A DNA stretch of 64,000 nucleotides, taken from assembly GCA_019057385.1 (NCBI GenBank), contig JAHQJS010000004.1:741062-805061 (forward strand). The letters are read 5' to 3'. Made by a program: the position numbers and the translations under genes. A model generated the notes under the pieces. It saw only the letters and a list, made by a program, of their open reading frames with translations, was not told where the DNA came from and searched no databases. Position 1 is the first letter of the stretch, and each line of letters opens with the position of its first letter. Of the stretch, positions 2,754-15,993 are shown in pieces. The stretch comes from Candidatus Borrarchaeum weybense (lineage in GTDB: Archaea; Asgardarchaeota; Sifarchaeia; Borrarchaeales; Borrarchaeaceae).

Positions 2754-3746
2754 ATGGGAAATGAGTTTGTGACGGTTAAAGGACGAAGATATGCTGTTGA
2801 AGGAAATGGCGAACTCGACCTTGGTATCAACAAAAATCACTCCGCCAAAGAACATTATGATCATTATGAGACTCCTTTTGAAGATATTGCCGAGATAGAG
2901 GGCTTGGAGACCCTCACTCACCTTAAAGAATTAATTCTTGGTCCCAATTATATAACAGAGATCAAGGGCTTGGAAAATCTCAGCAATCTCCAAGTACTCT
3001 CTCTCCATGATAATGAAATCAAGGAGATCAAGGGCTTGGAAAACCTTACTAGCCTTCAAAAGTTAGTCCTCAGTTCTAACAGGATCAAAGAAATTAAAGG
3101 CCTGGAAACTCTTACTGATCTCCGTTACCTAACTCTCAATTCTAATAACATAGAAGTGATCCAGGGATTGGAACACCTCTCTAATCTTCAAAAACTAGAT
3201 CTGCGTTATAATCCAGTAGGTGCCTCAGAAAAGATCTTACAGTGGACAAAGGGTGCACAGGAAGTAGTTAAGTACTGCCAAGAAAAAAAGAAACGCACGC
3301 ATCTTGTTACGTTCAGAGAAGATATTTACGGTGTTTATGATACACTAGACTTAAGCAATAAAGAAATTAAGAATGTCTCTGAGATTGAAGGTTTAGAGCA
3401 TGTTACCCATTTCCGAATACTAAACCTAAGGAATAATTATCTAAAAAAGATCAAAGGACTGGAGTTTCTCTCTGATCTGAAAAAACTAGATCTTAGTAAG
3501 AATCTTATACAAGAGATTACAGGCTTAGAAACTCTCACCAATCTCGAATATCTTGATCTTAGTTTGAACCAGATAAAAGAAATCAAGGGATTGGAAACTC
3601 TTACCAATCTCAAAGAACTATTACTCAATCATAATCCGATAAGAGATGAAGAGAAACATTTAGTAGAGATGAGTGCACAAGAGATTGTGAAATACTGCCA
3701 AGAAAAAGCGAGAGTGACCAAAAAAAAGGCGACTGAAGGCAAATAA
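2754..3746 (+). CDS. Leucine-rich repeat protein (SDS22-like), two capped LRR modules
   Basis: Repeated LxxLxLxxNxIxEIKGLExL 22-aa units; C-cap AQEVVKYCQEK occurs twice. Confidence 0.92.
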   Translation: MGNEFVTVKGRRYAVEGNGELDLGINKNHSAKEHYDHYETPFEDIAEIEGLETLTHLKELILGPNYITEIKGLENLSNLQVLSLHDNEIKEIKGLENLTSLQKLVLSSNRIKEIKGLETLTDLRYLTLNSNNIEVIQGLEHLSNLQKLDLRYNPVGASEKILQWTKGAQEVVKYCQEKKKRTHLVTFREDIYGVYDTLDLSNKEIKNVSEIEGLEHVTHFRILNLRNNYLKKIKGLEFLSDLKKLDLSKNLIQEITGLETLTNLEYLDLSLNQIKEIKGLETLTNLKELLLNHNPIRDEEKHLVEMSAQEIVKYCQEKARVTKKKATEGK

Positions 3747-3758
3747 GGGAGGGAGCGC

Positions 3759-5099
3759 ATGGTAGAGGAGTTTGTGACAGTTAAAGGTAAAAAATACTAT
3801 GTTATTGGAGGCAATCTGGACCTACACGATAAAAAGATTTCTGATATCGCTGAAATCAAAGGCTTAAAGAATCTTACCCATCTTAGAGATTTAGATCTTA
3901 GCAATAATCAGATTGGTGAGATCAAAGGACTGGAACACCTTACTGAACTTAAAATACTAGACCTTAGAGAAAATCGGATAATAGAGATCAAAGGGCTGGA
4001 GCATCTTACCAACCTAGAAGTATTGTTGATTGATAAGAATCCAATAAAAAAAGAAGAATGGAATTTTGTATATGGCGAACATGAATGGGATGGTAAGTTA
4101 ATATCTGGAGCGCCAGTTTGGAGACTCGTGGAATATAGTCGATTAAAATCGCACAATCTTTTTGTAACAATTAGGAAAAAGAAATATTATGTAGATGTTG
4201 ATGAAGGCGAGCTTAACCTAAATGGCAAAGAAATCACTAGTATCGATGAAATCACAGGGCTGGAAAAGCTCAAAGACCTTGAAATACTCCACTTAGACTG
4301 GAATCAGATAACAGAGATCAAGGGGCTAGAGAACCTAGTAAGTCTAAAAGAACTCAACCTTCACTGCAATGAAATTGAAGAAATCAAAGGCTTAAGCAGA
4401 CTTTCTAAGCTTGAACGATTATCCCTTTACAATAATCAAATCAAAGAGATTAAAGGCTTAGAGAATCTCAACAAACTTCGAATATTGCGGCTTAAAGGCA
4501 ATCCGATAGAAGAAATTAAAGGCTTAGAACATCTTACGAATCTTAAAGTATTGCAACTTAATACTAATCTACTAAGTGGTTATGAGAAAAATTTGCTTAG
4601 GTATAACGCTCAAATGGTTGTAAAGTACTGTCAACACCAAAAGGAAGATACATTGCTTCATTTACCTTTTGTAACAGTCAGAGGGGAAAATTATTATGTT
4701 GACGATGATAAGCTCAGCCTTTGGGGTATAAAACTAACCAATATCGCTGAAATTAAAGGATTGGAGAATTTCATCAACCTCAAAAGTCTAAAACTTAGTG
4801 CAAATAGGATAACAACTATTAGTAAACTAGACCAGCTTAAAGATCTTCAAAAACTGGAGCTTAATGAGAATAAAATCAGAGAGATCAACGGTCTAGAAAA
4901 TCTCACTAATCTTAAAGAACTAGATCTTAGTGGAAATCAAATTGAAGAAATTAAAGGACTAGAGAACCTTATAAATTTAGAAAAACTAGACTTATTTGGT
5001 AATCCAATAAGAGAGTATGAGACACATTTGATAGACAGGAGTGCACAGGAAGTCGTGAAATACTGCCAAGAAAAGGCGAGCAAAACACACAGTGAATGA
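3759..5099 (+). CDS. Leucine-rich repeat protein (SDS22-like), three capped LRR modules
   Basis: Same LRR consensus; N-cap FVT(V/I)x(G/K)xxYYV three times; GGGAGG SD upstream. Confidence 0.92.
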   Translation: MVEEFVTVKGKKYYVIGGNLDLHDKKISDIAEIKGLKNLTHLRDLDLSNNQIGEIKGLEHLTELKILDLRENRIIEIKGLEHLTNLEVLLIDKNPIKKEEWNFVYGEHEWDGKLISGAPVWRLVEYSRLKSHNLFVTIRKKKYYVDVDEGELNLNGKEITSIDEITGLEKLKDLEILHLDWNQITEIKGLENLVSLKELNLHCNEIEEIKGLSRLSKLERLSLYNNQIKEIKGLENLNKLRILRLKGNPIEEIKGLEHLTNLKVLQLNTNLLSGYEKNLLRYNAQMVVKYCQHQKEDTLLHLPFVTVRGENYYVDDDKLSLWGIKLTNIAEIKGLENFINLKSLKLSANRITTISKLDQLKDLQKLELNENKIREINGLENLTNLKELDLSGNQIEEIKGLENLINLEKLDLFGNPIREYETHLIDRSAQEVVKYCQEKASKTHSE

Positions 5100-6460: not shown

Positions 6461-6500
6461 TACCTGAAAATAGGTTTTTCCAAAGTGTTTCAGGTAGAAT
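6461..6500. repeat. 40-bp palindromic direct repeat, copy 2
   Basis: Identical to 1958-1997; here the inverted arms are a perfect 13 bp (ATTCTACCTGAAA 6457-6469 / TTTCAGGTAGAAT 6488-6500). Confidence 0.95.
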
Positions 6501-6772
6501 AGACAGTTTTATACCTTCCATTTTTTCAAGAACAGTTGAAGAATGCTTAGGTATTGCTACAAATACATTTGGAATCTACTTGGTTCAAAATCAAACCTTT
6601 TTAGAGATTTCATTCTTCTATGATAACTTCATACTTCTAAACTAGAAGAACAGTTTGAATTTTAGAGACGCTCAAGATACATAACCTGCAATTTTCGGTA
6701 TAATTTTAATATACTCGCTTTATAAATTAATTCTTACCCTTTCATATATGGGTACTGACGCTGCCACGTATT

Positions 6773-9700
6773 GTGGATATATATTCAGTGATTGAACGAT
6801 TGATACAAGCTAATTATCATAAGCTCTGGTTTTTCCAAGATAAGTCGGTGCGTGCTTTCAGGGAAGGAAAAGATATATTGATAAAAGCTCCAACTGGTGC
6901 TGGAAAAACGCTTATTCCACTTATCTGTGCTACACTTGTTCTTGGAGAAAAATTGCGTTGTGTGTTTCTCGTACCAACAAGGCGATTAATTGACCAGACC
7001 TACGACCAGCTTGAAGACTGGTTTAAAAGTTTACCACGATATCAGAAAAAATATCGTATCGTCAAGGTAACAGGAGACGAGAGACCTTCTCACCGGGAAA
7101 TCAAAAGGGCTAACATCATCGTAACCACATATGAATCTTTTAATGGACTACTGTCGAAACAGTATGAGTACGCTCTCCTGAAGAAAGTAGGACTCGTAAT
7201 AGTCGATGAAATGCACTACATCAGCGATGCGGAACGAGGAGGACGGCTTGAGGATGCCATTGTCAAGGCAAAACTATGGTTGCGTCGTCGTCCCCAGATG
7301 ATCTATCTGGCGGCTACCTTAGGAAATGCAGAAGAAATCGGAGAGTGGTTAAAAGCCGAAGTTATCCAAACGACAAAACGCCACTCAAAAATAATTGTTG
7401 GAACCCCAATCAAAGTCTATGATGAGTATGAACGGTTAGAAACCATTTTTAGACTGATTAAAGAGACCTATGAGTTAGAGGTAGGGGCAAAGGAGACAGA
7501 TAAAAGATGTGTATTAATCTTTTGTAGAAGGCGACAGGACACCGAACTCAGAGCTTGGGAACTGACAAAAAAATGTGAGGACATGTGTTACAAGCTAACC
7601 GTTTCCTATAGCCATGCTGGGCTAAAAGCTATAGAACGACAAAGGCGGATGAAGTCATTTCGAAAGGGAGAGATTGATGTCCTTTTCACTACAACTGAAT
7701 ATAGAGAAGGAATAGACGCCCCAGTTCTGCGGATTATTATAGCGGATACAGAGGTTTTTGATTCACTGGAATTAGAACAGATGATAGGGAGGGCTGCACG
7801 ACCTCGTTTTTTTGAGATTGGATATGCAAATCTGATCATTCAAGGGAATGTAAACGTTATTTTGAGTAAAAACGAGATATCAATAGAGAATGGAGCAATT
7901 CAATTTAAGGAAAAACCTTTGAAAAGTCAGGCAAAACGTTATTTGAGCGGGATCATCCTCAATAGAGTGGCACGAGGGGCGGTTTCAACAGGGCAACTCA
8001 TCAGGTATCTTAAAGAATTCTATTTCTATTATGAGGAAAAAAGGCGAATAAGCAATTGGAATAGACTTTTACACACCGCGATTTCTAAACAAGAAGTATT
8101 CATACTCACAAAAGAGAATGATAAAAAGCTTTTTTCCTTAATCAATGGCAATGAACGTTACAGACGAGAAGACAAAGCAAACTTTCAATTATTTGTAAAG
8201 GGTTTCTTGAGCCACGTATTTGAAGCTGTAAAGGTCCGAAAGAAACGTACAAAGCGGAAGAAAAAATATAAACTTGAAAGCGAAGTAGTTTGCGATCTTC
8301 TAAAAGAATATTCTCATATTGAACATAAACGCTCTGAGAAAAGACTTAAAGAGCAGGTTAAAATACATCTACTTTATCTTATTCATGCGGGTTTTCTGGA
8401 GAGGAAATATAACAAAGTTGACGCAATAAAGAGTGGAAAATACAGGGCAACGGATGAGGGACGGTGGGCAAGTCAGTTTTTATTACGAGTCAATGATGCT
8501 CTTAAAATCCATCAATTCTTTCAAACCCGGAGATTCTATTCAGATGATGATACATTCGAGAAATTGGCTAACCTTATAGGTGAACGTGTATGTGAGCATG
8601 ATAATGAGCGATACGGGGTGAAGCAATATAGTGGGTTCATAAAGTTTTTGGTACTGGGATTTGATTTAGATGAGGCCGCGAAAAAAACAGGGATTAGACT
8701 GGGGGATGCTGAAGGATGTAGAAAGACTGCCACATGGATGGCAGAAGCGATGCAGGCTTACGTGGAAATGAATATCCCGTTCATTATACCTGTGGCGAAG
8801 AGTATTGTTGAATCACTTACTTTGCGAGAAAGGGATGATCCCCGTAAAAAGGTGCGACGATATGTAAAAGAAAAAGCGCCACCATATCCAGGTATTCAGG
8901 AAGCGATTAATGCTGTTCTTGAACAGGGAAGGATTGTAACGTATGATGACCTCCATGAAGTAATTACTGACCGTTATGGCGATTCTATTGCCCGTATAAC
9001 GACTATTAGGAACGTCCTTGATTTAGCGGTGCATGGGAAACTTGTAAAATTCTCACGAGGTAAAGGCGTAGGGCGCCCTTTAAGTCAAGTTTGCAGTACT
9101 AAAGCACAAATTCCTGAGTATTTTCACAAGACCTGTGGTTCATGTGTTTTTCGTATTACTATAACGGATGAGAGCGAAAAGGAACACGAAAATCAACGGT
9201 ACATCTGTGAATTACGCAGAGACTATAATAAACACACGAAAACCAATACTTTAAGTTCCTATGTCACACAAAAATATGGAGCATGTAGATATCACAACTC
9301 TTCGCGAAAGAGGAAACTTCGTTCAATTAAGAGTTTGAAAGCAATCAATGCACTTGAGGCGATCTGTCATATTTGTCAAGCAGCAGTAGTTCAGATACCA
9401 CAAACTTATAATCGTTACACTCGATGTCCGAATTGTGATTCAGAATATTACTACCGCTGGGATGGAAGGATCAATGTTAAACCTGGTGTAGGAGATCTTC
9501 TTCAAGACGCTCTCAAAGATATTCTAGGAAAGGTTGTTAAGCCTACGAAAATTTGGCAAAAAAGAGAAGGCGATATACAGCGACACTATATGAAACTAAT
9601 AATCAAGAAAGGTGAAAATGCTTATGTTAACCAAAATAAACTCTTTTATATCCCAAAGGAAGGAAAAGCACGCTCATATCTATTAGATGCTATTCATTTT

Positions 9701-10765
9701 ATTGGGGTTTGTGATGGCGTAAAACTCAAACAACAAGTCTATAATAAACTTGGTGACAGAATTTTTCCTGAGAGACATTTAAAGAAAGCGCCACGAGTTC
9801 CCTCTGATCAGTACAATGACGTTTTTAATTTCCAGATAACTGACACACTTAAAGAACGTGCAGAAAGACTAAGAAGAACAGTCGAGGGTGCACATTTTGC
9901 CAGGATAATTGTAACGAGTAAAAAACTAAGTAATGTTCTTCTTACACTACAAGCTGAAAAGGATGAATTGTTAAATTCAAGAGACGTCGAAAGGTTATTC
10001 TTCAAACAAATGAATGTTGTCGCCCACACTGTTATGCATTGGACTGGGAATAGAGATAATCTTCTCAGTTTTGAAGGAATTGGTGAACGTTACGCCTGGG
10101 AAGGTTTGAAACTTATTGTGAAAGATACTGCTTTGAAATGTGGTAGTCGGACTCAGGAGCGGCATATCTTTTCTGTTCCCTTTATCGGAATGGTGAAGGC
10201 ACGTTCGCCCTTTAGCACAGGACTTAATGCTATATACCGTCGCGCGCTTCAATTCTGTCGACACGCCCTCTATAATGTGGGTTTTTCTTGGCATCCCGGG
10301 GAACTTGTCTTGCATTTTCAAAGAGGGAAAGGACAACGAATTTCCATAGGTGCTATCCTCGACTTTCGCGAACTGTTTCTTCCACTCTTTAGATATGTGT
10401 ATGCTAAAGCATGTAAAGAGAGAGAAATTAATGAAAACGATTTCATACGATCAAACACCCATCGGGGAGAAGAAATATATTCGCTTACCGAGAAGGGAGA
10501 GGAGAAGATTAGCAAGTTATTTGAAAGAATAATGAATGAACGGGTTTATTATCTGAACACATTTATGCCATTACATACCGCTATAAAGCAATGCGCTAAG
10601 TCTCTCTGCAACTTTCTATTGCATAAATCGCCTTTTTCTCCTTTTATCTGTGCTTTGGATGAAGAACAATTTAAAGAGATTTCTAAACGATTTCAAAATA
10701 TAGAACGATTTTGTGCTTCATTAGGAAAAGGACCTCCGATTCCTAATGTGTTTGCTATGGCATAA
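6773..10765 (+). CDS. Ski2/Hel308-like SF2 helicase fused to wHTH, Zn fingers and a C-terminal diverged Cas1-like integrase domain
   Basis: Helicase motifs APTGAGKT, VPTRRL, TTYE, DEMH, LAAT, HAGL, QMIGRAARP. Cys clusters CGSC..C..C and CHIC..CPNC. C-terminal LLSFEGIGERYAW / PFSTGLNAIY / VLH..ISIGAILDFRELF match the Cas1 E..H..DxxE catalytic pattern. Confidence 0.8.
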   Translation: MDIYSVIERLIQANYHKLWFFQDKSVRAFREGKDILIKAPTGAGKTLIPLICATLVLGEKLRCVFLVPTRRLIDQTYDQLEDWFKSLPRYQKKYRIVKVTGDERPSHREIKRANIIVTTYESFNGLLSKQYEYALLKKVGLVIVDEMHYISDAERGGRLEDAIVKAKLWLRRRPQMIYLAATLGNAEEIGEWLKAEVIQTTKRHSKIIVGTPIKVYDEYERLETIFRLIKETYELEVGAKETDKRCVLIFCRRRQDTELRAWELTKKCEDMCYKLTVSYSHAGLKAIERQRRMKSFRKGEIDVLFTTTEYREGIDAPVLRIIIADTEVFDSLELEQMIGRAARPRFFEIGYANLIIQGNVNVILSKNEISIENGAIQFKEKPLKSQAKRYLSGIILNRVARGAVSTGQLIRYLKEFYFYYEEKRRISNWNRLLHTAISKQEVFILTKENDKKLFSLINGNERYRREDKANFQLFVKGFLSHVFEAVKVRKKRTKRKKKYKLESEVVCDLLKEYSHIEHKRSEKRLKEQVKIHLLYLIHAGFLERKYNKVDAIKSGKYRATDEGRWASQFLLRVNDALKIHQFFQTRRFYSDDDTFEKLANLIGERVCEHDNERYGVKQYSGFIKFLVLGFDLDEAAKKTGIRLGDAEGCRKTATWMAEAMQAYVEMNIPFIIPVAKSIVESLTLRERDDPRKKVRRYVKEKAPPYPGIQEAINAVLEQGRIVTYDDLHEVITDRYGDSIARITTIRNVLDLAVHGKLVKFSRGKGVGRPLSQVCSTKAQIPEYFHKTCGSCVFRITITDESEKEHENQRYICELRRDYNKHTKTNTLSSYVTQKYGACRYHNSSRKRKLRSIKSLKAINALEAICHICQAAVVQIPQTYNRYTRCPNCDSEYYYRWDGRINVKPGVGDLLQDALKDILGKVVKPTKIWQKREGDIQRHYMKLIIKKGENAYVNQNKLFYIPKEGKARSYLLDAIHFIGVCDGVKLKQQVYNKLGDRIFPERHLKKAPRVPSDQYNDVFNFQITDTLKERAERLRRTVEGAHFARIIVTSKKLSNVLLTLQAEKDELLNSRDVERLFFKQMNVVAHTVMHWTGNRDNLLSFEGIGERYAWEGLKLIVKDTALKCGSRTQERHIFSVPFIGMVKARSPFSTGLNAIYRRALQFCRHALYNVGFSWHPGELVLHFQRGKGQRISIGAILDFRELFLPLFRYVYAKACKEREINENDFIRSNTHRGEEIYSLTEKGEEKISKLFERIMNERVYYLNTFMPLHTAIKQCAKSLCNFLLHKSPFSPFICALDEEQFKEISKRFQNIERFCASLGKGPPIPNVFAMA

Positions 10766-11026
10766 ATCAAATATCATTTTCTGTTTTTTCCTTTGACTTG
10801 GATTAGTGTTGACCATTTATGCAACCCTTTTTGTTATGGCAGAAATTTAAAGTTTTCATGAATTTTTAGCCATTTTTCTTAAAAATTTATTGATTCAAAA
10901 CAACTTTTTACTAAAGTATAAAGGATTTTTCTTATGTTTCCAAAAAGATAGTTGAAAACGTCTTTAAAATGCTTTATTTTCAAAAAGAAGTGTATAAAAT
11001 ACTTCATTATACTAAAAAAAGGTAGA

Positions 11027-11048
11027 GAAAGCGATAGGTTTATATATC
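11027..11048 (+). promoter_or_regulatory. Putative archaeal BRE/TATA promoter of the cas7-like gene
   Basis: Purine-rich stretch, then TTTATATA at 11039-11046, about 45 nt before the ATG; GAGGT SD at 11080. Confidence 0.55.
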
Positions 11049-11091
11049 TGGTTGCAAAAGGTATATTTGAAAAATCAACGAGGTTAGTCAA

Positions 11092-11877
11092 ATGAAAACC
11101 ACAAAAAAACAAATTGTAGTTCGTGCCTATACTCCGATTGCCAAGCCCCTGAATGCCTCCATCCAGAAAAACTCTACTATGTTGCTTCTCGGTGAAATTC
11201 CGTATACAAATGGAGGAAAGACCTTCAATACTAAGGTGTATTACATCAAGGGTCTGCGTGGCATGTTACGACATGCTGCAATGAAACTTGCGTATGATTG
11301 TGGGATTGAAGTTTGCCATACTAGCGAAAAAACCGAACTCAAAGATGGTACAAAACTGATGCCTGTGGGATTTCATACATTAGGGAGTTGTGATCCTCCT
11401 TGTATTCTTCAGCGTATCTTTGGCAGTTTTCGCAAAGAGTCTCGAATTTCAGTTTCGGCGGATCCTATTACTTCTATCTCTCATAAAGACTATACAACCG
11501 ATGTAGCGGTGCAAAAAGTCCATATTGCCAGCGAAAATCGAATAGCCATGAGCTTTGAGCGGATTCCGATACAGGATTTTCGTGAAAGTTATTTCAGCGG
11601 TTATTTTACCTTCTCCATTGATGTGACTCAATTAACCAAAGAGGAAATTAAGTTTCTTATTGAATCATTGCTCTATATCGAGACACTTGGCGGCGGTAAA
11701 AATGCAGGCTATGGGCAGGTCAAATTATTAGACTTTGATCTCCAAAATATTGAAGTCGAGAAAAAAATAGAACGAGAAGATGGCGTCTATAAGTTCTCTG
11801 AGGACATAAAAGCTGAACCAGTTGTACTTGACGGTATTGAGGATTGGAGGGAAACTATAGTCTCAGTAGACACATGA
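11092..11877 (+). CDS. cas7: Cas7-group RAMP protein
   Basis: KGLRGMLRH helix, Cys insert with CILQRIFGS, thumb region ENRI, glycine-rich loop LGGGKNAGYGQV. Confidence 0.85.
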   Translation: MKTTKKQIVVRAYTPIAKPLNASIQKNSTMLLLGEIPYTNGGKTFNTKVYYIKGLRGMLRHAAMKLAYDCGIEVCHTSEKTELKDGTKLMPVGFHTLGSCDPPCILQRIFGSFRKESRISVSADPITSISHKDYTTDVAVQKVHIASENRIAMSFERIPIQDFRESYFSGYFTFSIDVTQLTKEEIKFLIESLLYIETLGGGKNAGYGQVKLLDFDLQNIEVEKKIEREDGVYKFSEDIKAEPVVLDGIEDWRETIVSVDT

Positions 11878-11943
11878 GGGGATTAAATGATTCATGAAAA
11901 GGCTTTATTTCATTTCTTTTCTTTTTTCTCTTCTCTTCTCATC

Positions 11944-12075
11944 CATGACGGTCTGCTACTTGCATATCGCGGGTGGCACGTTCTGGTACATGAGACCGAA
12001 CCATCTGAGAGGCCCCACGCCTCCAGTATTGATGGGGACGGATGACAGGCAACGGGACGATAAAAGTGATATCCA
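11944..12075 (+). ncRNA. Putative structured ncRNA, copy 1 (132 nt)
   Basis: About 75% identical by hand alignment to 13034-13159, with compensatory changes in stems; GC-rich in AT-rich context; G-U pairs favour the + strand. Confidence 0.65.
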
Positions 12076-12113
12076 ATATACGAATAAAAGGTAAAGAAAC
12101 CGATATGGTTAGA

Positions 12114-12142
12114 TATCCCGTTATATTCATTCTAACGGGATA
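12114..12142. repeat. Perfect 10-bp inverted repeat (hairpin or operator) upstream of the Cas5-HD gene
   Basis: TATCCCGTTA-N9-TAACGGGATA. Confidence 0.8.
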
Positions 12143-12164
12143 AACACTATAATGAGGGTTAGAA

Positions 12165-12974
12165 ATGGTAAAAAACTGGGTTAAATTGACGGGCATAACG
12201 AAAACACCTGTGATCTCCAAGCGAAAACGATTTGGAATTAAGGGCATAGGAGTGATTACTATTCATGGTCGTCCTAGAGCCTTCGGCAAACTGACAAAAG
12301 GAGAAAGACGGGCACCCATGACTTTTAGAGCATGGTATGGACATGTTGAGTTTATTGTTCCAGAACATAAACTTGAGACCGCATTCTCCATTGATCGCCT
12401 CGGACGCTACACCCATGAAGGCATGGGACTCATACAATGGAACGAAGTGAAAAAACTCCACAATAAGCCTCTCTACTTCTCGAGAAATATCATCATCCGA
12501 AAAATGCTCCCTTCCAACCTTACCGAAATACAACAAAAACTCATGATCGCTATGCTTCTCCATGACTTCGTTAATACCGAAAGGCACTCAAGTAAAATCT
12601 ATACTGAAATCAATATTCTTGATGAAGAAATCTACAAATTAGTAAAAAATCACCACAACTATGATACCGACGAAAAACAACTTCCTCTTCTTTCTATCCT
12701 TCAATATTATGATAGATTATCTTCCTCTATTTCTCGAAAATTCAAGTGGTCTGCTTACTCGCGGTATCGCGTCACAGAATTAGAAAAAATTGATTTTCAA
12801 GTTCTAAAAAGGGAAATTGAATCACGACAACATTCTATTTATCCCCTTTATACCTCTATCCGTAAATCACAAATTCTTGGCAAAATAAATGAAGCACTCG
12901 CTTTTGGCTTTTCTTCTCTGAAGAACCATCTACTCTTAATGGTGAACCTCTATCTTAATGATTTACCGAGTTGA
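12165..12974 (+). CDS. Compact Cas5-like RAMP fused to an HD nuclease domain
   Basis: N-terminal KLTGITKTP strand and G-rich loop LGRYTHEGMG; C-terminal MLLHD, KNHH and YYDRLSS motifs typical of CRISPR-associated HD domains. Confidence 0.7.
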   Translation: MVKNWVKLTGITKTPVISKRKRFGIKGIGVITIHGRPRAFGKLTKGERRAPMTFRAWYGHVEFIVPEHKLETAFSIDRLGRYTHEGMGLIQWNEVKKLHNKPLYFSRNIIIRKMLPSNLTEIQQKLMIAMLLHDFVNTERHSSKIYTEINILDEEIYKLVKNHHNYDTDEKQLPLLSILQYYDRLSSSISRKFKWSAYSRYRVTELEKIDFQVLKREIESRQHSIYPLYTSIRKSQILGKINEALAFGFSSLKNHLLLMVNLYLNDLPS

Positions 12975-13033
12975 GTTCTTATGTTCCAAATTATGGTGTT
13001 ATTGTTTCTCTTCATTGGTAAATGCATCAACTA

Positions 13034-13159
13034 CAAGACGGAATGCTCTTCGCTCTACGCCCAGAGCACGTTCTTGTGCATGAGACTGCACCTGAGAGGT
13101 CCCACGCCTTCTTCGACGGGAATGTATGACAGGCACAGGGACGATAAAAGTGATACCCA
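13034..13159 (+). ncRNA. Putative structured ncRNA, copy 2 (126 nt), abutting the putative right junction
   Basis: Homologous to 11944-12075; shared blocks GCACGTTCT, CATGAGAC, CTGAGAGG, CCCACGCCT, ATGACAGGCA, GGGACGATAAAAGTGATA. Confidence 0.65.
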
Positions 13160-13170
13160 TCAGTATTTCA
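13160..13170. repeat. Candidate 11-bp target-site duplication, right copy (includes the stop codon of the HerA-like gene)
   Basis: TCAGTATTTCA, identical to 2011-2021. Confidence 0.5.
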
Positions 13171-15064
13171 GAAATGGACGACCCAGAAGAATGTATTCTA
13201 TGAAATTAGCTCGTTTAGCGCTCTTTATAATTTTCTCAAATTTCTTACGAACCCGATTTTCATCAACGTTTAATTCAGACACATCTATTTCGTCCATAAC
13301 GTTTTTAAGAAGTTTTTCGAAATCATAGACAAGTTTCTCGCCCTCCAAGTGGGCTAAACCCGTTTTAAGGGCGGTATTCACCTCTATGTAATACCACTCA
13401 CGAGCAACTGGGTACTTTAGATGCCCCTTTTTTACTAAATCTCTAAGGAATTCCAAGCCAAATTCAGTGTGTCCTAACTCTTCTAAACGTGCTGCTAATG
13501 CGGCGATGACATCTTCATTTGACGAGGGTGTCTTAACTCCAACGATACGTGGACGCTTTAATGCAGTTTCTAATTCTTCCTCACTCATTTTCGGTGTTGG
13601 TAGTTCATCCAAAATGTCCTCTTCTTTGATTATCTCTTTGTCCTTAATTTTATCTTTTGGTTTCATACCCACTGGTGTTTCAATTTCGGTTTTTGGTTCA
13701 ATTGTTTCGGTTGGGGGTTGAACTTCTTCAGGTTTCACTTCGGGGACTTTGGTGACTTCGGGAGTCGACTCTTCGATAATTCCTGCTGAGATAAGTGCTT
13801 CTTTCAGTTTTCTTACATCATTTTCTGTTAATGTTTCATGTTCTGTAAGTAACCAGCGCGTTTTAAAAAATTGAATATCCTTTTTCAAGTCTGGGGACAC
13901 AAGTACAAAATTACCTGCTTCGAGCCGTGGTAATTTATTGATGATTTTTGCTGCTCGGGTTTCACCGGCACCTGCAGTCACGATGTGTTCAATGGCTTCA
14001 CGAGATTGACGGGCGGTAATTCTTCCTATCGCAAAAGTGTTCATCTGCTCAAAAGCTTTGTAGTCCACGTCCTTAGGGCTTTGGGTCGCAATAATGCAGA
14101 TAACTCCATATTTGCGTGCCTGACGAAATATAAGTTTCAACCCTTCCTTTGGACCAGGTTTCACTGTCCCTGAAGGACAAAAAGGAGCAATCTCGTCAAT
14201 GAAGAAAATCAATCGTGGTTTTTTGGAGGAGCCTTGGTTTATCATCCAATCATACAAGCGGTTCACTAATATCGAAATGAAAAAATGCCTTTCTTCATCT
14301 GTTGTGAGGGTTTTGAGAAAGAAAACATTGATAGGTGTACGCCCTTTTTCTTTCTTTATTAACTTCGTGATATTTAGTCTCTCTCCTAATTCAAAAAGCA
14401 ATTCTGACGTCCCAATTGTTAAACTTCTAATGGATTGACTTAGTCGTTCTCTTTCAGCATCTTTTAGATACTTTCCATAGTCGACTGAATTTAATGGATC
14501 TTCTACAAGAAGATCTGCTAAATGTTTCAAATCTTTAATTTCTTTATCTTTTTGCCAGTAGTTTTTCATAAGTTCGTAAATCACCGCAAATGCTTTTGAT
14601 TCATAGCTGCTCGGCAGCCCAGTTACCTTTATTAGAACCCTTACCAGTGTACGGCTGGAATTGTCGAGTAACCTGATAGCATCTTCATGTTCTGCCTTCA
14701 CATCAGGAAATACTATGGGATCTATACAGATTGGAAGACCCTTTGTTGAAGCAGGAGTAAATATTTTTACATAAACTTTGTCCTTATATTCTCTAAGCAT
14801 TTTTAATGGAAGTCCATGTTCTTCTATGACTTTTGGATCGGCAAGCTTAATCAACGAAGCAATATCACCTTGAGGGTCCAAGGCAATTATTGGGATTCCT
14901 TCTTTAGCTGCTTCTTCAATAATAATTTTTGCTAAAACGGTCTTACCAGACCCTGTCGATCCAAAAGCTGCCATATGTCTAACTAAAATTTTGGCAGGTA
15001 TTTCCAAATGCTTTTCTGTAGGATTTCCATCCTTATCTACTTCATAACCTATAAATAGTGACAT
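13160..15064 (-). CDS. HerA/FtsK-superfamily ATPase (DUF87-like) with acidic/Pro-rich linker and C-terminal domain
   Basis: HMAAFGSTGSGKT, ALDPQGD, FFIDEI, ARKYGV..ATQSP motifs. Confidence 0.85.
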   Translation of the reverse strand: MSLFIGYEVDKDGNPTEKHLEIPAKILVRHMAAFGSTGSGKTVLAKIIIEEAAKEGIPIIALDPQGDIASLIKLADPKVIEEHGLPLKMLREYKDKVYVKIFTPASTKGLPICIDPIVFPDVKAEHEDAIRLLDNSSRTLVRVLIKVTGLPSSYESKAFAVIYELMKNYWQKDKEIKDLKHLADLLVEDPLNSVDYGKYLKDAERERLSQSIRSLTIGTSELLFELGERLNITKLIKKEKGRTPINVFFLKTLTTDEERHFFISILVNRLYDWMINQGSSKKPRLIFFIDEIAPFCPSGTVKPGPKEGLKLIFRQARKYGVICIIATQSPKDVDYKAFEQMNTFAIGRITARQSREAIEHIVTAGAGETRAAKIINKLPRLEAGNFVLVSPDLKKDIQFFKTRWLLTEHETLTENDVRKLKEALISAGIIEESTPEVTKVPEVKPEEVQPPTETIEPKTEIETPVGMKPKDKIKDKEIIKEEDILDELPTPKMSEEELETALKRPRIVGVKTPSSNEDVIAALAARLEELGHTEFGLEFLRDLVKKGHLKYPVAREWYYIEVNTALKTGLAHLEGEKLVYDFEKLLKNVMDEIDVSELNVDENRVRKKFEKIIKSAKRANFIEYILLGRPFLKY

Positions 15065-15369
15065 TTTTTACCACATTAGAGAGCTAAACGAATACCGATT
15101 GAATCATGAAAAATCACTCACGATCTCAAATAAAGCTTTTCACAAAGTTTTAAAAATCTCTTGTAAAATCGACGAAAACTCAATAATCAATGCAAACACT
15201 AATTTATTGTAACTTTACAGTTTAAGGACAAATCTAAACCCTATTAGCGTCTATTCTATGTGTGAGTGGACAAAGAACAGCAAGTCGGCAATGATAGATT
15301 TAACTATAGTAGTAAAAGTAAAATAGAAAGAAAAAAAGAATTCGGGAGCACCCCTTGCAGGGTGCACGT

Positions 15370-15993
15370 CTAACTCGGTACTTCTTCATATCGACCGCGA
15401 AGTACAACGCCTAGGAGTATGAGTAGCCCAGCTGAAATGGCTCCTAATACCCACGCCGACGTATTAAAGCCGGCAGCTATGTACAAACTGTTGAAGCCAG
15501 CGAGTATCAAGCTTAAGAACACACCTAAAATCAACGAGAACAAGATAAATCTAGCAGTTGTTTCTTTAGAAACTTCTCGTCCCTTGCCTTGTAAAACATC
15601 TACGATGAACCCGAGTTGGCTTAATCCCCACAGAAATATAAATGCCACAAAAATCACTGTCGCATAGTTGAACATCGCTTGTGTCATTTCTGCTTGACTA
15701 GTTCCAGGCCATACAGGCAACATTCCTAGACTGTAGAAGTATCCCGCACCTAAGATTGCTGCAATTACGAACAAAAAGGCAAAAATGTTTCCAAATAGCA
15801 AATCGTCAGGGTGCACGTAGCCTACTCTTCCTTTCTCCTTGAAGAAAGTATTGATGATTGCTACGAACAACACTATCGCAAGAAATACAAATGTGACATA
15901 GTATACAGTTAAGCTCTGAAGCCAAAGACTAAAGACTAATACAGCGCCTCCTATCCCAGACGCCATAGCACCGAAGAAAATCAATCTAACCAC
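15370..15993 (-). CDS. Multi-pass membrane protein, unknown function
   Basis: About six hydrophobic segments; GGAGGT SD before GTG. Confidence 0.7.
   Translation of the reverse strand: MVRLIFFGAMASGIGGAVLVFSLWLQSLTVYYVTFVFLAIVLFVAIINTFFKEKGRVGYVHPDDLLFGNIFAFLFVIAAILGAGYFYSLGMLPVWPGTSQAEMTQAMFNYATVIFVAFIFLWGLSQLGFIVDVLQGKGREVSKETTARFILFSLILGVFLSLILAGFNSLYIAAGFNTSAWVLGAISAGLLILLGVVLRGRYEEVPS

Follow-up and report, generated by a model that had tools for sequence, protein, structure and literature searches.

The stretch of DNA analysed here, referred to in full as the window, comprises 64,000 nt of Candidatus Borrarchaeum weybense (part of contig C4 of a 4.18-Mb genome) and carries on its plus strand a cassette in which protein genes alternate with two copies of a folded RNA of about 125 nt. 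The order is helicase-Cas1 fusion gene (6773–10765), Cas7-like RAMP gene (11092–11877), RNA copy 1 (11943–12072, directly 3′ of the cas7-like gene), mini-RAMP-HD gene (12165–12974) and RNA copy 2 (13033–13156), which lies 3′ of the RAMP-HD gene and is the last feature of the cassette. Judged from sequences and modelled folds, the gene set is an ARAMP (Asgard RAMP) cassette, and the analysis shows the RNA to constitute a new structured, sense-strand family that is tightly linked to ARAMP genes and located at the right end of inserted modules.

Both copies are recognized in a covariance-model search, copy 1 at 127.4 bits (E 6.7e-26) and copy 2 at 128.2 bits (E 4.3e-26), with limits that bear out the two related copies noticed at these places in the first-pass annotation; the strings quoted there are all present. 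Identity between the copies amounts to 81.5% in aligned columns (101 of 124 aligned positions the same) or to 76.5% over the longer copy, two 3-nt gaps separate them in the alignment, and a BLASTN search of the genome with copy 1 as the query returns copy 2 at E 4.6e-17. The 18-nt block noted at the 3′ side occurs in the window solely at these two places, compared to 0.1 occurrences expected. Rfam 15 (4227 families) was searched as the annotation had proposed and no family was matched: the whole window is without a match at gathering thresholds, and the region 11800–13300 gives chance-level matches only at E up to 10.

The fold is understood from 89 copies aligned to a covariance model that was built from the 25 copies of this genome. 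Standard pairs occupy 92.1% of the paired cells, as compared to 81.9% in column shuffles of these paralogous copies (0 of 500 reach the observed value) and 36–55% when the partners are slid against each other, and 20 pairs show double changes. Together with the lack of an Rfam match, these numbers uphold the earlier claim of a noncoding RNA under structural selection. From 5′ to 3′, the RNA shows a conserved leader (11943–11953 in copy 1), the hairpin P1 (11954–11963/11969–11978 in copy 1; 13044–13053/13059–13068 in copy 2), the closing helix P2 (11979–11984/12054–12059; 13069–13074/13138–13143), a conserved asymmetric internal loop, P3 (11996–12005/12032–12042; 13087–13094/13117–13124) enclosing P4 (12009–12013/12019–12023 with loop 12014–12018; 13096–13100/13106–13110 with loop 13101–13105), and a 3′ tail (12060–12072; 13144–13156) that pairs back to the P4 loop. 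The helices differ in how they vary. P1 is a 10-bp hairpin of nearly free sequence in which double changes affect 8 of the 9 pairs in the model, and as many as six pair types occur; between the two copies of the window its pairing is kept through two double changes and one single change, as had been seen for "stem 1" in the first reading. P2 (CGUUCU with GGGACG) is conserved and its variation consists only of one-sided G-U changes, while in P4 (GAGGU with GCCUC) a G-C to A-U switch is found 26 times. Because the covariance model aligns the P3 region badly, P3 was evaluated without alignment: cognate strands pair at −7.08 kcal/mol and non-cognate ones at −5.69 kcal/mol (0 of 2000 permutations), and the preference for the cognate strand holds inside each lineage too.

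A mutual-information scan of the alignment yields a single strong pair outside the model, which connects the third base of the P4 loop (CCNAC) with the base that varies in the tail (GUNAUA). In the 89 copies this pair is GC in 38, CG in 24, AU in 13, GU in 4 and other in 10, and the A-U and C-G pairs next to it hardly vary. An independent set of 51 distinct metagenome copies gives CG in 22, GC in 23 and other in 6. The P4 loop and the conserved 3′ tail thus form a 3-bp pseudoknot (12016–12018 with 12066–12068 in copy 1; 13103–13105 with 13150–13152 in copy 2), to which the alignment was not fitted, since the pseudoknot is absent from the covariance model. The annotation was right in suspecting a pseudoknot and mistaken about its partners: in the proposed GCCT/AGGC pairing, about 40% of copies have UCGC in place of AGGC and still an unchanged GCCU, and GCCU is the 3′ strand of the covarying P4. 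Two further proposals were abandoned, the hairpin around TGAGAC because its complement is lacking in most copies of the family, and the CCCC/GGGG stem because the P4 loop and the P3 3′ strand explain the region better. A pairing of the P4 loop with the AGG or UCG motif was also considered and ruled out as inconsistent in copies having CUGAC and CCAAC. The reading of the plus strand from G-U pairs holds: G-U cells (404) far outnumber A-C cells (56), and pairing is at 92.1% if the plus strand folds and at 75.9% if the minus strand does, so that the plus strand is the folded one.

The RNA is tightly linked to the protein genes. The genome has about 10 paralogous cassettes (protein identity between cassettes, 64–88%) of the order helicase-Cas1 (not in all), cas7-like, RNA, RAMP-HD, RNA, all features of a cassette on one strand; each RAMP gene is followed by one RNA copy, some cassettes have a third or tandem copy, and all 25 copies of this genome lie within these cassettes. 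A sister genome has the same order, and on metagenome contigs 35 of the 58 copies away from contig edges are placed directly 3′ of an ARAMP gene. In a tree, the RNA copies group by cassette lineage and not by position, which rules out that two ancient RNA types exist, one after cas7 and one after RAMP-HD. Whether the junction motif reads AGG or UCG goes with the RAMP clade, in both RNA copies of a cassette, which suggests concerted evolution or co-evolution with the proteins.

Upstream of the copies, a TATA-like box is found at −40 to −16 in 36 of 87 copies, compared to 7 of 87 in a control window, with the peak near −30; we infer from these sequences that about 40% of copies probably have a TATA-type promoter of their own. 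The box is carried along with the RNA in tandem duplications, and runs of two to three RNA copies at 35–140 nt of promoter-like spacing are seen at G004 C9:1297–3018, G001 C176:4699–4981, G001 C73:1184–1482 and G000 C5:119435–119845 (G000 being the genome of the window). Between RNA copy 1 and the RAMP-HD start codon, a conserved hairpin with a 10-bp stem can be read from the plus strand (12114–12142); it is preceded by a TTTAC-type box at about 12076–12082, and its sequence recurs behind the after-cas7 copies of related cassettes. A conserved ATG, in frame and accompanied by hydrophobic residues (MLQIMFIIFIVAGKY-like), overlaps the TATA box at 12981–13032 and at the equivalent sites before other after-RAMP-HD copies.

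In the genomes searched, the family is restricted to a few Asgard archaea. Iterated nhmmer searches find 25 full copies and about 5 fragments in this genome, and some 150 copies were gathered overall from Borrarchaeum/Sifarchaeum-type Asgard archaea and sediment metagenomes. By the covariance model, all four other genomes of the genus carry the element (3–21 copies each) and 33 copies are present in the single genome covered from another family of the class, whereas 55 further genomes of the phylum have none. The exact 18-nt core motif has its hosts in Ca. Borrarchaeum/Borrarchaeota, Ca. Sifarchaeum and a Promethearchaeota metagenome-assembled genome, all Asgard archaea, and led to 61 more copies (51 distinct) on sediment metagenome contigs. 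Many copies are at contig ends in draft assemblies, and immediately upstream of orphan copies there is often a remnant of the RAMP-HD gene, a fragment of its C-terminal part. On Ca. Sifarchaeum subterraneum contigs (L064–L085), at least 11 copies share about 135 nt more upstream, with a hairpin and TATA-like boxes; the resulting repeat of about 260 nt has genes for RNA polymerase B, isoleucyl-tRNA synthetase, acetyl-CoA synthetase, gelsolin and Arf GTPase as neighbours.

The proteins encoded along with the RNA include diverged relatives of Cas proteins. The helicase-Cas1 fusion (1330 aa) has a superfamily 2 DEAD/Hel308-like N-terminus (Pfam DEAD, Helicase_C and ResIII) and, in its last ∼460 residues, a divergent Cas1 integrase domain. 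The latter has no direct Pfam match, its profile finds nothing in an hmmsearch against PDB sequences, and a word-indexed protein search returns the genome's own proteins only. An AlphaFold model of the domain (seven paralogs; predicted local distance difference test, pLDDT, of 71) has Cas1 and casposase chains only among the top 50 PDB matches of Foldseek, the best being 4n06_B at E 1.8e-10, and casposase 6opm is among the fold matches. An exhaustive profile search retrieved 64 relatives among 1.84 billion representatives, including several Pfam Cas1 proteins and one fusion of DEAD helicase and Cas1. The Cas7-like RAMP (261 aa; eleven paralogs in the genome) matches Pfam RAMPs PF03787 above the curated cut-off (E 2.8e-9), with weak NCBIfam matches to gRAMP, Csm3 and Csf2. 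The mini-RAMP-HD protein (269 aa) consists of a predicted mini-RAMP (residues 1–107) and a predicted HD domain (residues 120–269). Its AlphaFold model (pLDDT 80) gives nothing at E ≤ 0.001 in Foldseek; VIA-align places the C-terminal part with the HD domain of Cas10/Csm1 (Z 8.6 and 7.4) and the ferredoxin-like N-terminal part with Cas5/Cas7-type chains at Z 5–6 only. Residues H133, D134, H141, K144, H163, H164, D183 and H255 are invariant.

ARAMP is described as an array-less, type III-derived system of Asgard archaea with a distinct Cas1 and an enigmatic mechanism, according to the review summaries we compared (PMC8730458; PMC12669027). The cassette agrees with that description in its diverged Cas7 homolog (PF03787), its distinct and highly diverged Cas1 (fold match at E 1.8e-10; profile relatives with Pfam Cas1), its Asgard host and the lack of an array at the locus, the one array of the genome being found about 590 kb away. 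For the diverged Cas5-like RAMP with a nuclease, the mini-RAMP-HD protein is the candidate: its HD domain is supported (Z 8.6 to Csm1; invariant His and Asp), and its RAMP-like part, at Z 5–6, may be of Cas5 or of Cas7 type. It differs in having an RNA gene behind each RAMP gene and at the module end, an RNA component not being mentioned in the summaries of the system in these two reviews (PMC8730458; PMC12669027). The distant CRISPR array (G000 C4:148433–152130, outside the window), which is canonical, repeats a 37-nt unit (ATTTCAATCC...GCAAC) at least 49 times with spacers of 37–41 nt and is unrelated to the folded RNA. ARAMP was reportedly predicted computationally by Makarova, Wolf, Shmakov, Liu, Li and Koonin in 2020 (CRISPR J 3:156). 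The HRAMP (haloarchaeal RAMP) systems, said to be those of Makarova et al. in 2019 (FEMS Microbiol Lett 366:fnz079), are similar in that diverged homologs of Cas5 and Cas7 are paired, together with nucleases, in the absence of an array, and distinct in their host group and in having no Cas1.

Additional genes are found around the cassettes. Genes for leucine-rich-repeat proteins are located at 2754–5099 of the window and beside the helicase-Cas1 genes at G000 C4:910446, C4:346229 and C5:125159, and adjoin helicase-Cas1 in 4 of the 7 cassettes that have it. On the minus strand, 13160–15993 encodes a HerA-like ATPase (634 aa) and then a 207-aa protein of no known family, possibly a defence pair in its own right; the stop codon of the HerA gene marks the end of the cassette. 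ARAMP modules without helicase-Cas1 (L234:3731–4038, L096:1150–1800, L104:2005–2650) have a conserved small divergent gene upstream of cas7, whose product (..SISVSIPDDLEQQLRE..) looks by eye like a ribbon-helix-helix regulator.

Cas7 and Cas5 family proteins are the RNA-binding subunits of class 1 effectors. We consider it somewhat favoured (probability of about 0.55) that the new RNA is the RNA subunit of the Cas7-like/RAMP-HD effector of a mobile, array-less ARAMP module. The Cas7-like and RAMP-HD proteins would bind it as a subunit of an array-less, type III-derived effector, in which the RNA would act as a scaffold, possibly with a specificity segment. ARAMP cassettes would then include the RNA as an integral part, with one copy placed behind the cas7-like gene and one behind the mini-RAMP-HD gene, the final one sitting at the right edge of the inserted module. 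Like CRISPR RNAs (crRNAs) and trans-activating CRISPR RNAs (tracrRNAs), these RNAs lie beside cas7/cas5-type genes and are repeated units kept similar within a locus. They are distinct from an array in that the units are of ∼125 nt and multi-helix, not 25–40-nt repeats with spacers of similar length, and in being separated by an 810-nt gene or, in tandem, by 35–140 nt of promoter-like sequence. An anti-repeat, as in a tracrRNA, was not found: the duplex energy with the 37-nt CRISPR repeat of the genome equals that of shuffled repeats.

Several observations weigh against an effector subunit. A guide-like variable single-stranded stretch is not present within the conserved element, P1 being variable in a base-paired form, and the genome's own CRISPR array could supply RNAs in trans. 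The Sifarchaeum subterraneum genome (80% complete) has 33 copies, 89.2% paired as compared to 81.9% in shuffles (0 of 500), most of them within the ∼260-nt repeat beside unrelated housekeeping genes, and neither a cas7-like nor a Cas1-like nor an intact RAMP-HD gene was found in it; the RNA thus does not require the proteins in order to persist or spread. Conversely, distant pairs of RAMP and RAMP-HD genes (G000 C5:80630; G028 C12) show no significant copy by the covariance model with filters off. The shuffle statistics, moreover, overstate the independence of the copies, because these are paralogs. In G028, a genome of another Asgard family, two ARAMP-like RAMP-HD genes are followed by a shared motif of their own (GGGGCTTTC[AG]TGCAACAAGGAG[CT]GA; L130:5100–5270, L132:3300–3445), possibly another RNA, belonging to another subfamily of ARAMP.

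Mobility of the modules is indicated by three clean cases of presence and absence among congeners, in which the 3′ end of the RNA model lies 4–10 nt from the right junction of the insert. Case 1 is a 446-nt insert in which a degraded small divergent gene and a cas7 promoter region are fused to the RNA (10 nt to the junction; absent from three genomes), case 2 a 1.2-kb insert (4 nt; absent from one genome), and case 3 a 5.25-kb insert with cas7-like gene, RAMP-HD gene and RNA (8 nt; absent from two genomes). The flanks in case 1 show a candidate 13–15-bp A/G-rich target duplication. At the window's own site, a sister genome is without 6504–13086, and what is left of RNA copy 2, its 3′ two-thirds, directly adjoins a 40-bp palindrome (G004 C54:9773–9820), an arrangement that looks like a deletion. 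The palindrome, exact and with a 10-bp inverted repeat, is present at 1958–1997, 6461–6500 and G000 C7:418123, and at G001 C176:4417 it abuts a truncated RAMP-HD gene; having three occurrences in the genome only and being absent at other cassettes, it was ruled out as a cassette feature and may mark the terminus of a different element responsible for deletions next to it. An 11-bp duplication proposed earlier (13160–13170 and 2011–2021) did not withstand comparison, for it is at chance level, exact 10–12-mers recurring within 25 kb at most other cassette ends. A fourth site compared for an empty counterpart (L235) holds other DNA in the sister genome. A segment of ∼1.7 kb there (L235:1786–3533; G000 C4:999785–1001532) has a 508-aa open reading frame, recurs at 77–84% identity in at least 15 places of congeners and is probably an insertion sequence.

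These junctions also suit a reading in which the element serves primarily in cis, as the terminal sequence of a mobile ARAMP element: the right end, folded as single-stranded DNA or RNA, would be recognized for integration or excision, for example by helicase-Cas1, and the solo copies would be non-autonomous derivatives. Such a function is compatible with that of an effector subunit, and we hold it to be unlikely as the primary one. It would agree with the short distances between the 3′ end of the RNA model and the right junction (10 nt in the 446-nt, 4 nt in the 1.2-kb and 8 nt in the 5.25-kb insert), with the candidate duplication of case 1, with the 25–33 copies per genome, many at draft contig ends, with the Sifarchaeum ∼260-nt repeat family beside unrelated genes, and with Cas1 relatives serving as transposases in casposons (6opm among the fold matches). 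It has difficulty with the after-cas7 copy, which sits inside the module and not at its end, with a left end lacking an inverted or direct copy, and with a target duplication that is clear in 1 of 3 cases and of low complexity there. The multi-helix fold with pseudoknot, the many G-U pairs and the TATA box at −30 better fit a transcribed RNA, and a Cas1-like gene was not found in the Sifarchaeum genome (80% complete), the one richest in solo copies.

A more specific proposal, distinctly unlikely in our estimation, understands ARAMP as a Cas1-mobilized element with an omegaRNA-like RNA at its right end. The transcript would extend from the scaffold into the flanking target DNA, and the read-through part would guide homing, retention or targeted integration, used by the Cas7-like/RAMP-HD effector and perhaps by the helicase-Cas1 integrase. 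ARAMP would, if so, be an RNA-guided, Cas1-based mobile element. The analogy to the omegaRNA or right-end element RNA (reRNA) of TnpB and IscB in IS200/IS605/IS607 elements lies in a scaffold of ∼100–200 nt with pseudoknot, in the place at a mobile-element end (the terminal copy is here 4–10 nt from the right junction in three insertion polymorphisms), in the multiple copies and in the solo copies. The differences are that TnpB or IscB (RuvC) is not a neighbour here, the partners being RAMP, RAMP-HD and helicase-Cas1, that a second, internal copy exists, and that a guide from flanking DNA is only hypothetical here.

It is improbable, too, that the element is merely a cis-acting part of the cassette mRNA without function in trans, be it a stabilizer in the 3′ untranslated region, a processing site for a RAMP endoribonuclease, or a terminator or attenuator. 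The element is always on the sense strand and directly behind the stop codons of both RAMP genes, after-cas7 copies are preceded by a pyrimidine/T-rich tract and not by a clear TATA box, and some RAMP proteins (Cas6, Cas5d) are known in general as endoribonucleases. Solo copies beside unrelated genes nonetheless keep the structure, tandem duplications carry the promoter-like segment with the RNA, a T-run terminator is lacking behind the element, and the conservation of unpaired regions plus the pseudoknot exceed what a stabilizing hairpin would need. Still less probable, we think, is a regulatory or antitoxin-like RNA that restrains the HD nuclease or the whole module, comparable to type III toxin–antitoxin RNAs and CreA-type CRISPR-associated RNAs. 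The tight, repeated linkage to the gene of a predicted active HD nuclease with invariant catalytic His/Asp and the behaviour of cassettes as selfish, multi-copy units would suit it. Complementarity to cassette genes or to the CRISPR repeat of the genome is however at chance level, we know of no toxin phenotype for the module, and solo RNAs without a nuclease gene would lack a role.

Lastly, the copies could encode small proteins of ∼50–115 aa. The frame in question (..TFLCMRLNxLRGPTP..) is open in most copies, and an ATG in frame further upstream and a hydrophobic N-terminus are frequent; by eye, about 22 of the 25 copies of this genome can be read through the core without interruption. Since the alignment gaps between copies 1 and 2 are also two in number and 3 nt long, coding was tested for, as the first-pass annotation had suggested. 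Column variability by codon position (0.85/0.89/0.93 in the genus; 0.64/0.91/0.67 in Sifarchaeum) reveals no third-position excess in the element in either set, and the synonymous share of single-base codon differences is 0.31 in the open frame and 0.28 and 0.30 in the others; the 17 codons upstream of after-RAMP-HD copies show a weak synonymous excess (20/52 versus 10/62 and 6/38; small numbers). With the P1 region hypervariable in amino acids while base pairing is kept, Sifarchaeum copies conserving nucleotides and pairing in spite of frame-shifting single-base indels and another stop codon, stops or frameshifts in three copies and the TATA box inside the supposed N-terminal coding part, a peptide gene is extremely improbable.

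The RNA as subunit of the ARAMP effector, the reading we prefer, has importance for a puzzle that has existed since 2020: how RNA-binding backbone proteins of CRISPR effectors and the integrase Cas1 are reused where an array is lacking. Because the array is absent despite these proteins, ARAMP has been guessed to be non-programmable or a new kind of mobile element. A structured RNA gene behind each RAMP gene and at the module edge gives a definite candidate for the nucleic-acid component that ARAMP has lacked. Should the RNA prove to be a guide or scaffold of the effector, it would constitute a third source of RNA for Cas-type proteins, besides CRISPR arrays and omegaRNAs, and would bear on the exchange of roles between CRISPR parts and Cas1 transposons. 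If the RNA is merely a transposon end, it would still define a new mobile element of Asgard archaea.

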